Assembly: GCA_035288045.1 (NCBI GenBank)
Contig: DATEBA010000023.1
Coordinates: forward strand, 3,356 to 67,355
Source of the DNA: Actinomycetota bacterium
GTDB taxonomy: Bacteria; Actinomycetota; UBA4738; HRBIN12
Length of the DNA stretch: 64,000 bases
Direction: 5' to 3'
Part shown: in pieces, positions 47,383 to 55,795 of the stretch
Layout of the letters: each line of letters starts with the position of its first letter
Position numbering within the stretch: the first letter of the stretch is position 1
Program-made: the position numbers and the translations under genes
The notes under the pieces: generated by a model
What the model was told of the DNA's origin: nothing
Databases searched by the model: none
Seen by the model: the letters and a program-made list of their open reading frames with translations, nothing else

Positions 47383-50274
47383 CTAGGCGGGCGAGCCGCC
47401 TCCGCCGCGAGCAGAGACCGCGACGCGGGGCGCCCGCGGTGTCCCAAGGACCTCCGCCAGAAACCGCCCCGTGTGGGACCCCGGGTGCGTGGCCACCTCC
47501 TCCGGCGGACCCGCCACGACGACCTCGCCGCCCGCCGCTCCCCCCTCGGGCCCGAGGTCGACGATCCAGTCCGCCGTCTTCACGACGTCCAGGTTGTGCT
47601 CGATCACGACCACCGTGTTGCCGCTCGAAACCAGGCGCTGAAGGACCGCGAGGAGCTTGCGGATGTCCTCGAAGTGCAGGCCGGTCGTCGGCTCGTCGAG
47701 CGCATAGAGCGTGTTCCCCGTGGCCCGCTTGTGCAGCTCCGAGCCGAGCTTGATGCGCTGCGCCTCGCCGCCGGACAGCGTCGGCGCCGGCTGCCCGAGT
47801 TTGATGTAGCCGAGCCCCACGTCGGATAGCGTCTGAAGGTAGCGAGCCAGGATCGGGATGTTCCGGAAGAACTCAAGCCCCTCGTCCACGCTCATCTCCA
47901 GGACGTCCGCGATCGAGCGGCCCTTGTACCTCACCTCGAGCGTCTCGCGATTGTACCGCCTCCCCTTGCAGACCTCGCAGGTCACGTACACGTCGGGAAG
48001 GAAGTGCATCTCGATCTTGATCTGGCCGTCGCCGGCGCAGTTCTCACACCGCCCCCCGCGAACGTTGAACGAGAACCGCCCGGGCTGGTAGCCGCGCACG
48101 CGCGCCTCCGGCGTCTGCGCGAACAGCTTCCGGACGTGATCGAACATGCCGGTGTAGGTCGCGGGGTTCGACCGCGGCGTTCGTCCTATCGGCGACTGAT
48201 CGATGTCGATCACCTTGTCGATCTGCTCCCAGCCGACGAGGCGCTTGTGCTTGCCGGGCAGCATGCGGGACCGATAGACCTTCTGGTTGAGTGCCCGCAA
48301 CAGAACGTCCTGGACCAGGGTCGACTTCCCAGAGCCCGATACACCGGTCACGCACACGAACAAGCCCAGCGGGATCTGGATCGTCACGTCTTTCAGGTTG
48401 TGCTCGCGGGCGCTCTCGAGTCGAAGCGTGCGTTCCCCGGGGACGCGGCGGACCTCGGGAACCGGGATCGAGCGACGCCCGGATAGATAGGCACCGGTCA
48501 ACGAGCCCTCCTCGTCGAGAAGGCCCTTCAGCGGCCCTGAGTAGACGATCTCCCCCCCGTGCTCTCCGGCGCCGGGGCCGATGTCGACGACGTGATCCGA
48601 CGCCTCGATCGTAGCTTCGTCGTGCTCGACGACGATCAGCGTGTTCCCGAGGTCACGGAGACGCAGCAGGGTGTCGATGAGCCGCCGGTTGTCGCGCTGG
48701 TGCAACCCGATCGATGGCTCGTCGAGGATGTAGAGCACTCCGACTAGGCCGCTGCCTATCTGCGTCGCTAGCCGGATCCGCTGCGCCTCGCCGCCGGCGA
48801 GCGTCGCCGACGCGCGGTCGAGCGAGAGGTAGTCGAGGCCGACGTCGACCAGGAAGCCGAGCCGGGCGCGGATCTCCCTTAGGAGCCGCTCGGCGATCAT
48901 CCGCTCGCGGTCCGAGAGCTCGACCGCGTCGATGAAGTCGAGCGTGTCGCGTATCGACTTCGTGGTGAGCTGCCATATAGTGATCCCGCCGACGGTCACT
49001 GCCAGGCTCTCCGGCCGGAGACGCGCGCCCTTGCAAGAGCGGCAGGGAACCTCCCGCATGAACTGCTCGAGGCGCTCGCGCTGCGTGTCGGAATCGGTCT
49101 CTGCGTGCCGCCGCTCCACGTTCGGGAGCAGGCCTTCGTAGGCGGTCCAGTACGACCGGAGCCGCCCGTATCGGTTCCGATACCTGACGTAGATCTCCTC
49201 GTCGGAGCCGTAGAGGATCACGTCCCGCGCCTTCTTCGCTAGCTTCTTCCACGGCGTGCTCACACCGAACCCATGCGCATCGGCGACGGCCTCGAGCACG
49301 CGGTCCCAGTACTCGAGGCGCGAGCCTCCCCAGGGCGCGAGCGCTCCCTCGGAGATCGAAAGGTCCGGATCCGGCACTACGAGCTCGGCGTCGACCTCGA
49401 GGCGGATGCCGAGCCCGTCGCACGTCTGGCAGGCGCCGTAGGGCGAGTTGAACGAGAAGTTCCGCGGCTGGAGCTCGTCGAAGGAGATGCCGCAATGCGT
49501 GCACGCGAGGTTCTGCGAGAAGCTCTGGACCTCCTCGTGCCCGTCGGTCCGCACCGCGACGGCAGCGATGCCCTCGGCGAGCTGGAGCGCGGTCTCGATC
49601 GAGTCGGCCACCCGCCGGCGGATGTCCGGCTTGGCGACGAGCCGGTCGACGACCACCTCGATCGTGTGCTTGTAGTGGCGTTCCAGGCGGATCGACTCGG
49701 ATAGGTCGCGGACGTCGCCGTCGATCCGGGCGCGGACGAACCCCTTGCGCGCCAGGTCGCCGAGGAGCTTCTCGTACTCGCCCTTGCGACCCCGGACGAC
49801 CGGCGCGAGCACCTGGAACCTCGTGCCCTCCGGCAGCTGGAGCACCTGGTCGACGATCTGCTCCGGGGTCTGCCGGCCGATCGGGCGACCGCACTTCGGA
49901 CAGTGTGGGTGGCCGATCCGCGCGAACAGCACCCGCAGGTAGTCGTAGATCTCGGTGATCGTCCCGACGGTCGACCTTGGGTTCTTGGAGGTCGACTTCT
50001 GGTCGATCGAGATCGCCGGCGATAGCCCCTCGATGAAGTCGACGTCCGGCTTCTCCATCTGCCCGAGGAACTGGCGGGCGTAGGCGGAGAGCGACTCCAC
50101 GTAGCGCCGCTGACCCTCCGCGTAGATCGTGTCGAAGGCGAGCGAGCTCTTGCCCGAGCCGGAGAGGCCCGTGAACACGATCAGCCTGTCCCGGGGAAGC
50201 TCGAGCGTGATGTTCCTCAGGTTGTGCTCACGGGCGCCGTGGATGATTAGCTTCTCGGTGCCCACGGCGGGCAT
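47383..50274 (-). CDS. uvrA: excinuclease ABC subunit A
   Basis: ORF 963 aa. Two ABC modules ([10 protein letters not shown]; [10 protein letters not shown]), zinc fingers, LSGGEAQR signatures. N-terminus matches the GAREHNL pattern. Functional start may be the GTG at codon 4 (50265). Confidence 0.9.
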
Positions 50275-50300
50275 TGTAGTGCGGGTCCCAGACAGGACTT
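50275..50300 (-). promoter_or_regulatory. candidate leaderless promoter of uvrA with RecA-NDp-like (PafBC-type) upstream motif
   Basis: Minus strand: TGTCT-gggacccgcac(11 nt)-TACAAT, with the -10 hexamer ending 7 nt before an in-frame GTG (codon 4 of the uvrA ORF). Same architecture as upstream of uvrB. Confidence 0.35.
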
Positions 50301-50323
50301 CCTCGGGTCGCTACGCTCGCGCC

Positions 50324-53675: not shown

Positions 53676-53745
53676 GCCGCAGTGACGTACCAGGCGGCCC
53701 GCACCTAGCCAGCCGAGGGGGGCCTTTACGAGGAGGCTCCCCAGC

Positions 53746-55761
53746 TCAGGCTCCCGCCACGCCGGCCTCGCGAAGCGCCTTCAGCTCCTTGCGCAGGTCG
53801 ACGACTTCGTCGCGAAGCCTGGCCGCGTACTCGAAGCGGAGGTCCTTGGCCGCCTCGTGCATCTCCTCCTCGAGGCTCCGGATGAGGCGCTCGAGCTCGT
53901 CGGCCGGCAGCTCGGGCTCCGCTCGGCGCCGGCGTCTCTTCTCCGGCGTCTTCCGGCCGTCCTCGGCCTGCATCGACAGGAGGATGTCGGACACCTTCTT
54001 GCGGATCGTCTGCGGGTCGATCCCGTGCTCGCTGTTGTAGCCGAGCTGGATCTTGCGCCTTCGCTGGGTCTCCGAGATCGCGCGCTTCATCGAGTCGGTG
54101 ACCTCGTCCGCGTACATGAGCACCGTTCCCTCGACGTTCCGCGCCGCGCGACCGATCGTCTGGATGAGCGAGGTCTCCGAGCGCAGGAACCCCTCCTTGT
54201 CGGCGTCGAGGATCGCGACGAGCGACACCTCGGGGAGGTCGAGGCCCTCTCGGAGCAGGTTGATACCGACCAGGACGTCGAACTCGCCGAGTCGAAGGTC
54301 GCGGAGGATCTCGATGCGCTGGAGCGTGTCTATCTCGGAGTGCAGGTACCGGACCTTCACGCCCATCTCGATCAGGTAGTCGGTCAGGTCCTCGGCCATC
54401 TTCTTGGTAAGGGTCGTGACGAGGACGCGCTGGCCCTCCTCCGCGCGCCCGCGGATCTCGCCTATCAGGTCGTCGACCTGCCCGCGCGTCGGCCTGACCT
54501 GCACCTCCGGGTCCACGAGACCGGTCGGGCGCACTATCTGCTCCACCACACGGCTCGAGACCGACAGCTCGTAGGGCGCCGGCGTGGCCGACATGAAGAC
54601 GACCTGGTTCACCCGCTTCTCGAACTCGGCGAACCGGAGCGGCCTGTTGTCGAGAGCGCTCGGCAGCCGGAACCCGAACTCGACCAGGGTCTCCTTGCGG
54701 CTCTTGTCGCCCTCGTACATCCCGTGGAGCTGCGGGACGGTCACGTGGGACTCGTCGATCACGCAGAGCCAGTCGTCGCGGAAGTAGTCCAGGAGCGTGT
54801 AGGGAGGCTCTCCGGCCTCACGGCCGTCGATGTGGCGGGAGTAGTTCTCGATGCCGGAGCAGAAGCCCATCTCGCGGAGCATCTCGAGGTCGTAGGTCGT
54901 GCGCATGCGGAGGCGCTCCGCCTCGAGGAGCTTCCCCCGCTGCTCAAAGCTCGCCAGGCGCTGCTGGAGCTCCTCCTCGATGCGGACGATCGCGCGCTTC
55001 ATGCGCTCCTCGGACGCGACGTAGTGCGAGGCGGGGTAGATCCACTCCTCGCCGACCTCTCCGAGGATCTCCCCCGTGACGGTGTCGAAGCGAGTGATCC
55101 GCTCGATCTCGTCGCCCCAGAACTCCACGCGTACGGAGGTCTCCTCGTACGCCGGGTGGATCTCCAGCACGTCGCCGTGCACGCGGAAACGTCCGCGGGC
55201 GAGATCGCCCGGCGTCCGGTGGTACTGGATGTCGACGAGCCTCTGGATCGCGAAGTCGCGCCCGATGTCGACCCCCTTGATGAGGCGGAGGACCTGTCCC
55301 ATGTACTCCTCGGGCGTGCCGAGGCCGTAGATCGCCGAGACGCTGGCGACGATCAGCACGTCGGGGCGGGTGAGCAGTGCCGCGGTCGCCGAGTGCCGCA
55401 GGCGCTCGATCTCGTCGTTTATCGAGGAGTCCTTCTCGATGTAGGTGTCGGTCTGCGGGATGTACGCCTCGGGCTGATAGTAGTCGTAGTAGGAGACGAA
55501 GTACTCCACGGCGTTCTCGGGGAAGAACTCCCGGAACTCGTTCGCGAGCTGGGCCCCGAGCGACTTGTTCGGAGCGAGGACCAGCGTGGGCTTCTGGACC
55601 CGCTCGACCAGGTGGGCGACCGTGAAGGTCTTCCCCGTGCCGGTGGCTCCCAGCAGCGTGACGTGTGGCTCGCCCGCGAGGACGCCCTGGGCCAGTTCCT
55701 CGGCGGCCTTCGGCTGATCGCCCGCGAGCTCGAAGTCGGCGTGGACCTTGAACGGTGGCAC
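53746..55761 (-). CDS. uvrB: excinuclease ABC subunit B
   Basis: GTG start V58 of ORF 53746..55932. [32 protein letters not shown]-terminal UVR domain ([30 protein letters not shown]). Confidence 0.9.
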
Positions 55762-55795
55762 GGACCGATTGTATGGCCCAACCGCGACACGGGAT
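55762..55795 (-). promoter_or_regulatory. candidate leaderless promoter of uvrB with RecA-NDp-like (PafBC-type) upstream motif
   Basis: Minus strand: TGTCG-cggttgggcca(11 nt)-TACAAT-cggtcc-GTG(uvrB start). The -10 hexamer is 6 nt upstream of the start codon, and the TGTCG element sits at the spacing reported for the mycobacterial RecA-independent DNA-damage promoter. Confidence 0.4.

Follow-up and report, generated by a model that had tools for sequence, protein, structure and literature searches.

Which regulator controls uvrA and uvrB, two genes of nucleotide excision repair, in an uncultured actinobacterium? The question is raised by a 64,000-nucleotide stretch of DNA from an Actinomycetota bacterium (GTDB lineage Actinomycetota; UBA4738; HRBIN12; GenBank assembly GCA_035288045.1, contig DATEBA010000023.1, positions 3,356 to 67,355), the whole of which is called the window below and to whose numbering all coordinates refer. 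A first-pass annotation had proposed that both genes carry a promoter resembling the mycobacterial RecA-independent DNA-damage promoter (RecA-NDp), which is activated by the paired proteins PafB and PafC (PafBC), and that both proteins are encoded in the same window. Do the two sites have the geometry of a PafBC promoter? Do they stand out from chance, and are they kept in relatives? Does the window encode an activator equipped to read them? The evidence that follows makes it likely that uvrA and uvrB each possess a PafBC-dependent hybrid promoter of the RecA-NDp type, predicted to give leaderless mRNAs.

Promoter architecture at uvrA and uvrB

Both sites were located on the minus strand where the first-pass annotation had put them. 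Upstream of uvrA the strand reads cc-TGTC-tgggacccgcac-TACAAT-gcccgcc-GTG, with TGTC at 50291-50294, TACAAT at 50273-50278, 12 nucleotides (nt) after TGTC, and the GTG start, a further 7 nt on, at 50265-50263. The uvrB site, g-TGTC-gcggttgggcca-TACAAT-cggtcc-GTG, has TGTC at 55786-55789, TACAAT at 55768-55773 and GTG at 55761-55759. Here too 12 nt separate TGTC from the hexamer, bearing out the identical spacing that had been claimed for the two genes, and the distance from hexamer to start is 6 nt. We read TACAAT as the -10 hexamer and TGTC as a putative -26 element, the proposed contact of PafB at uvrB. Both TGTC elements are conserved in relatives, that of uvrA at a distance of 12 or 11 nt (N12 or N11).

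Chromatin immunoprecipitation sequencing (ChIP-seq) in Mycobacterium smegmatis gave the PafBC motif tGTCgg(N10)tA(N3)T, and cryo-electron microscopy (cryo-EM) identified its 3' half as the -10 element of SigA and its 5' half as a '-26 element' (PMC8635444). The published spacing, a GTC triplet followed after 12 nt by a TAnnnT -10, recurs at both uvrA and uvrB. Promoters of the PafBC type have no -35 element (PMC8635444). A scan with the sigma-70 consensus together with direct reading found none at the uvrA or uvrB promoter either, the hexamers 17 nt 5' of the -10 at the two promoters being GATCCC and GAAGTC. Neither promoter contains a LexA box (GAAC-N4-GTTC, up to one mismatch); the nearest lies in the uvrA coding sequence at 49973. 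The -10 ends only 6 nt (uvrB) or 7 nt (uvrA) from the GTG, so that a leader or ribosome-binding site would not fit.

The assignment of the uvrA start deserves comment. The ATG of the longest open reading frame (50274) is formed by the last letters of TACAATg and overlaps the -10 hexamer. Relatives begin uvrA at the homologous GTG or ATG. In those with a 6-nt spacer between -10 and start, the ATG of the hexamer falls in a different frame from uvrA, and GTG 50265 is for that reason taken as the conserved start. The comparison supports the proposal of the first-pass annotation that the true start is the GTG three codons after the ATG (codon 4 of the annotated frame), and the start is corrected here. 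The resulting gene (47383-50265, minus strand), predicted leaderless, encodes 960 residues and matches the NCBIfam UvrA equivalog with 1562 bits, aligned from residue 3, a fit that also favours the GTG as start. The same type of start mis-annotation is documented for the RecA-NDp gene Rv1955 of M. tuberculosis (PMC2897130). The uvrB gene (53746-55761, minus strand; 671 residues), also predicted leaderless, matches the NCBIfam UvrB equivalog with 1061 bits from residue 4. A protein search returned an identical 671-residue UvrB already on record; gene callers therefore also use GTG 55761.

Specificity within the window

By itself TGTC-N12-TAnnnT is not significant, with three occurrences in the 64-kb window where 1.0 is expected. 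The third match (22713-22734, plus strand) is antisense within an MTHFR-like gene (21713-23086) and is taken as chance. Adding the start codon changes the picture: TGTC-N12-TAnnnT-N5-8-RTG has two matches, uvrA and uvrB, against 0.09 expected, and none of 100 shuffled sequences reaches two. With up to one mismatch allowed, TGTC-N12-TACAAT likewise retrieves these two sites only.

The -10 hexamer is itself rare, with four occurrences of TACAAT in the whole window, and TACAAT-N5-8-GTG has three matches (uvrA, uvrB and uvrC) against 0.11 expected. A candidate start of a predicted gene was called leaderless-looking if a TAnnnT ended 5-8 nt before it. The window has 13 such starts, including those of pafB, pafA, dop, chrA and uvrC, and a TGTC at -26 is found at two, uvrA and uvrB; the chance of TGTC at a fixed position is approximately 0.003 per promoter in the base composition of the window.

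uvrC merits separate treatment. The longest open reading frame (43769-45697, minus strand) reaches the NCBIfam equivalog cut-off, and the likely start is GTG 45640, 19 codons inside it. The first-pass annotation had inspected the upstream region and seen no such motif. As regards TGTC this stands, GGCG occupying the -26 position, but the leaderless-type arrangement TACAAT-6 nt-GTG (45652-45638, minus strand) that uvrC shares with uvrA and uvrB had gone unreported.

Conservation in relatives

A scan with UvrB, limited to one genome per species, gave 80 loci, the nearest (L001, an uncultured Actinomycetota assembly) at 77% identity, and a metagenome scan added few close relatives among the matches listed (L085-L089). 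A protein search with UvrB found over 100 relatives from uncultured organisms, all labelled 'Actinomycetota bacterium', that share 80-86% identity and nearly all measure 669-671 residues; contig look-ups then provided eight loci of the clade (L165-L172). In a neighbour-joining tree of this single gene the window UvrB groups with L001 and L085 between Actinomycetes and Acidimicrobiia, and we tentatively place the clade there. Gene order is conserved in the fetched loci: polA, rpsA, coaE, further genes, uvrB, amidohydrolase, further genes, uvrA, a gene for a cupredoxin-like protein of roughly 650 residues, uvrC and rapZ.

Promoters were compared by anchoring on the -10, with 11 clade sequences at uvrB and nine at uvrA, the window included in each. 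The motif is present at uvrB in eight of the 11, as TGTC-N12 in the window, L001, L166-L169 and L171 and as cGTC in L172. At uvrA it is present in seven of the nine, with N12 in the window, L001, L166 and L171 and N11 in L167-L169. TGTC and TAnnAT are unchanged, although most positions of the 12-nt spacer vary. Specificity is also preserved: in 22 kb of L001, L166-L169 and L171, searched on both strands, each of the 12 matches to TGTC-N11/12-TAnnnT is followed, 6-8 nt later, by the start of uvrA or uvrB. The same check of uvrC at N11 or N12 was inconsistent (cGTC with N12 in L166, GTC with N11 in L167, nothing in the others), and uvrC is not counted as a bearer of the motif.

Some of these observations weigh against PafBC control. 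The weakly conserved 'gg' after the triplet is not kept, the sequences being TGTCtg at uvrA and TGTCgc at uvrB, and uvrC has no TGTC at -26. Among the clade sequences the element is absent at uvrB in L085, L165 and L170 and at uvrA in L170 and L172, and the uvrA spacer of L167-L169 is N11, not N12. Might these simply be constitutive leaderless promoters of the housekeeping sigma factor, in which the strong TACAAT hexamer accounts for activity and TGTC has been inherited without having a function? uvrC has TACAAT 6 nt from its GTG and no TGTC, -10 elements of the leaderless type are frequent in the window (13 candidates), and L085, L165 and L170 retain the -10 in the absence of TGTC. Yet an element with so low a probability at a fixed position is present at both genes, six relatives with diverged spacers also have it at both, about 35 actinobacterial loci repeat the arrangement at uvrB, and the spacing is that of the experimentally defined PafBC motif. 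Because of this pattern of conservation we regard a functionless TGTC as unlikely and favour PafBC-dependent activation.

At uvrA a second explanation has to be considered. The chromate transporter gene chrA (ATG 50324, plus strand) diverges from uvrA across 58 nt and itself looks leaderless (TACGCT, 6 nt, ATG). The TGTC bases might have been kept since their complement, GACA, belongs to a -35-like hexamer of chrA: CAGACA at 50289-50294 is followed after 17 nt by TACGCT and, 6 nt later, by ATG 50324. CAGACA matches TTGACA at four of six positions, the -10 conforms to TAnnnT, and its distance to the ATG is that of a leaderless gene. This explanation would leave the same TGTC unaccounted for at uvrB, where the upstream gene runs in the same direction, and relatives keep TGTC before uvrA despite a different divergent upstream gene. 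It is also compatible with use of the same bases by PafBC. As the sole reason for conservation at uvrA we therefore consider it extremely improbable, and PafBC-dependent activation remains our preferred reading of this site. The divergent uvrA and chrA promoters (50289-50326) would overlap in these 4 bp, and competition between them is possible.

The candidate activator

As the first-pass annotation had stated, PafB and PafC are encoded at 6.5-8.4 kb of the window, and both identities are secured by Pfam domains and by matches to the M. smegmatis proteins. pafB (7462-8412, minus strand), for the DNA-reading subunit of the proposed activator, carries WYL and WCX domains; pafC (6492-7508, minus strand), for the sigma-contacting subunit, carries HTH_PafC, WYL and WCX. 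PafB matches M. smegmatis PafB (7p5x_AY) over its full length with E = 4e-35, PafC matches 7p5x_AX with E = 6e-41.

In the M. smegmatis complex Arg46 and Arg50 of PafB read the two G:C pairs of the GTC triplet, and the helix-turn-helix domain of PafC stands in for the contact that sigma region 4 makes at a -35, a mode termed 'sigma adaptation' (PMC8635444). The recognition helix of PafB, RMFERDK, is identical in the window and M. smegmatis proteins. Arg46, Arg50, Lys52, Arg56, Arg8 and Tyr76 are kept, Glu42 and Ala43 are not. At position 62 of PafC, where sigma region 4 is contacted, Asp or Glu is the rule (PMC8635444); the window protein has Glu (GDLIEVD, compared with GDLIDFD in M. smegmatis).

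The neighbourhood of pafBC is that of a Pup-proteasome locus, with mpa, dop, pup, prcBA, pafA, tatA, tatC and a DEAD-box helicase gene. Three opposite-strand genes (DUF3866, DUF202 and a hydrolase) separate pafBC from pafA. Leaderless-type arrangements occur on the minus strand at pafB (8412; TATGAT, 8 nt, ATG), pafA (12119; TAGACT, 7 nt, GTG) and dop (15393; TAGCCT, 6 nt, ATG).

Could TGTC be read by a regulator other than PafBC, such as ClgR or another WYL-domain protein? ClgR was once reported to recognise the mycobacterial P1/RecA-NDp motif, according to a statement in PMC5656591 that cites the report, and actinobacterial genomes encode several WYL proteins each (PMC6789036). Against this, ChIP-seq and cryo-EM assign the motif to PafBC, with Arg46 and Arg50 reading GTC (PMC8635444), both arginines are conserved in the window PafB, and no further candidate regulator is seen beside either promoter. 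We judge a different regulator to be very unlikely, and PafBC the probable one.

The targets are also those expected of PafBC. A passage of PMC11975281 citing Müller 2018 gives the PafBC-dependent response of M. smegmatis to mitomycin C as 7-fold for uvrB, 3-fold for uvrA and 2-fold for uvrC, and uvrB mRNA is 37% lower in an M. smegmatis pafBC deletion (PMC5656591). UvrABC is listed in the regulon, and RecA-NDp extends to other Actinobacteria (PMC8223512), including Streptomyces (PMC5087735). The RecA-NDp/PafBC reading of the first-pass annotation thus gains support from the spacing of the motif, the lack of a -35, the PafB arginines, the specificity of TGTC and its conservation in the clade, and from M. 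smegmatis, because induction of uvrA, uvrB and uvrC by mitomycin C is PafBC-dependent there.

Distribution across the phylum

GTC-N12-TAnnnT, followed 6-8 nt later by an in-frame start and with no stop codon in between, was found at 35 of 153 uvrB loci. Essentially all 35 are of high G+C content and, where the title of the record names a taxon, it is Actinomycetota. The named taxa include Streptomyces, Nocardioides, Mycobacterium, Micromonospora and Curtobacterium, mostly with TGTC(A/G)GTG. Within the 153 loci no Firmicutes or Chloroflexi sequence has the motif, high-G+C Chloroflexi included, and it is absent from most Acidimicrobiia and all Thermoleophilia.

A different arrangement occurs at uvrA in Thermoleophilia, Solirubrobacterales and several Acidimicrobiia, where GAAC-N4-GTTC precedes a TAGAnT -10 close to the start (L004, L005, L033, L041, L053, L054, L078, L107, L121, L124 and L135). 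The outcome is a small phylogenetic map, with the PafBC-type leaderless uvrB promoter in Actinomycetes and the window clade and a LexA box at uvrA in Thermoleophilia and several Acidimicrobiia. Judged by these promoter sequences, uvrA appears to be repressed by LexA in some classes of the phylum and activated by PafBC in others. To our knowledge such switching has been reported for a small number of single species but has not been charted for the classes of the phylum.

Gene neighbourhoods and probable operon structure

An amidohydrolase gene (52707-53675, minus strand; Pfam Amidohydro_1) begins 70 nt 3' of uvrB. All eight fetched relatives have it downstream of uvrB: in L166-L171 it is the next gene, and in L165 and L172 one other gene stands in between. 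It is probably an operon partner co-transcribed with uvrB. Between uvrA and uvrC is a gene for 588 residues with a weakly cupredoxin-like C-terminus (45681-47447, minus strand). The protein measures 500-660 residues across the window and relatives, and its gene has the same position between uvrA and uvrC in L166-L171. No convincing terminators delimiting operons were predicted in the window, and no terminator-like site follows uvrA. Transcription from the uvrA promoter may read through to uvrC via the cupredoxin-like gene, which may itself be co-transcribed with the repair genes.

Other features are recorded for completeness. A protein with a DinB_2/DUF1706 domain is encoded directly 5' of uvrB in L166-L168, L171 and L172; in the window this domain forms the C-terminal part of a 359-residue protein (51631-52710, plus strand) between uvrB and uvrA. 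In L165, VapBC/PIN toxin-antitoxin genes flank uvrB and a cas cluster (14013-19570; GSU0053, GSU0054 and Cas3 families) lies approximately 2 kb downstream. The sole perfect GAAC-N4-GTTC of the window is an exact LexA-box-like palindrome, GAACGCCCGTTC, at 25388-25399. It is 33 nt 5' of the start (25355) of a Rieske-type oxygenase gene (24402-25355, minus strand) and falls in the gap between this and another amidohydrolase gene (25492-27423, minus strand). Rfam and tRNA scans of the window returned one tRNA-Leu and nothing else.

Proposed mechanism and significance

By analogy with M. smegmatis, where single-stranded DNA derived from damage activates PafBC (PMC11804915), we infer that PafBC would bind at uvrA and uvrB, that both genes would be induced by damage and that their transcripts would start at the GTG codons. 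In detail, single-stranded DNA made by damage would activate the PafB-PafC heterodimer, which would join RNA polymerase-SigA on a hybrid promoter composed of the housekeeping-sigma -10, TACAAT, and a TGTC centred near -26, with no -35. The helix-turn-helix domain of PafB would read the GTC triplet and that of PafC would substitute for the -35 contact on sigma region 4. Transcription would then begin at or beside the G of GTG to produce leaderless uvrA and uvrB mRNAs. uvrC would be served by its own TACAAT leaderless promoter, without a -26 element, and possibly by read-through from uvrA.

What is new here? The locus adds one more instance, and an expected one, to a known system, and the current understanding of PafBC is unchanged by these findings. 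Three modest points are new: the organism comes from an uncultured clade that lies outside the orders studied so far, the -26 element is cut down to TGTC, and uvrC shares TACAAT-6 nt-GTG but not TGTC. For an uncultured clade of soil or sediment actinobacteria, the findings predict nucleotide excision repair that is damage-inducible through PafBC rather than LexA. A broader proposal, about which we are somewhat doubtful, is that a possibly class-level clade of uncultured Actinomycetota uses a stripped-down PafBC promoter (TGTC only at -26, a spacer of 11 or 12 nt and a near-consensus TAnnAT -10), with uvrA switching between PafBC and LexA across the phylum. Were this true, sigma adaptation would have arisen at or before the split of the clade from Actinomycetes, and a minimal -26 element would be defined.

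Comparison with known systems

The closest parallel is the RecA-NDp of M. smegmatis and M. tuberculosis (also termed P1; recA P1, uvrA and uvrB). The tGTC core, the 12 nt to TAnnnT and the lack of a -35 are common to both, as is the use at DNA-repair genes, since the M. smegmatis regulon includes the excision repair genes uvrA, uvrB and uvrC. In the window as in mycobacteria pafB and pafC adjoin the Pup-proteasome locus, and PafB has Arg46 and Arg50. The window promoters differ in having neither 'gg' nor 'Rgtg' after TGTC and in the near-consensus -10, TACAAT. Where mycobacteria have a pafABC operon, the window has pafBC split from pafA by opposite-strand genes. The host too is different, being from an uncultured clade that the single-gene UvrB tree puts between Actinomycetes and Acidimicrobiia.

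The uvrB loci of cultured Actinomycetes (Streptomyces, Nocardioides, Micromonospora, Mycobacterium and Curtobacterium) share with the window a TGTC-N12-TAnnnT lying 6-8 nt before an in-frame start, and are likewise predicted to be leaderless. Unlike the window they mostly have TGTC(A/G)GTG, and their UvrB is longer than the window protein by 8-32 residues at the N-terminus. The LexA-controlled uvrA of Thermoleophilia, Solirubrobacterales and some Acidimicrobiia is the same gene with a -10 similarly close to the start, TAGAnT in that case. There, however, GAAC-N4-GTTC covers the -35/-26 region in an arrangement for repression, whereas uvrA and uvrB of the window have no such box.

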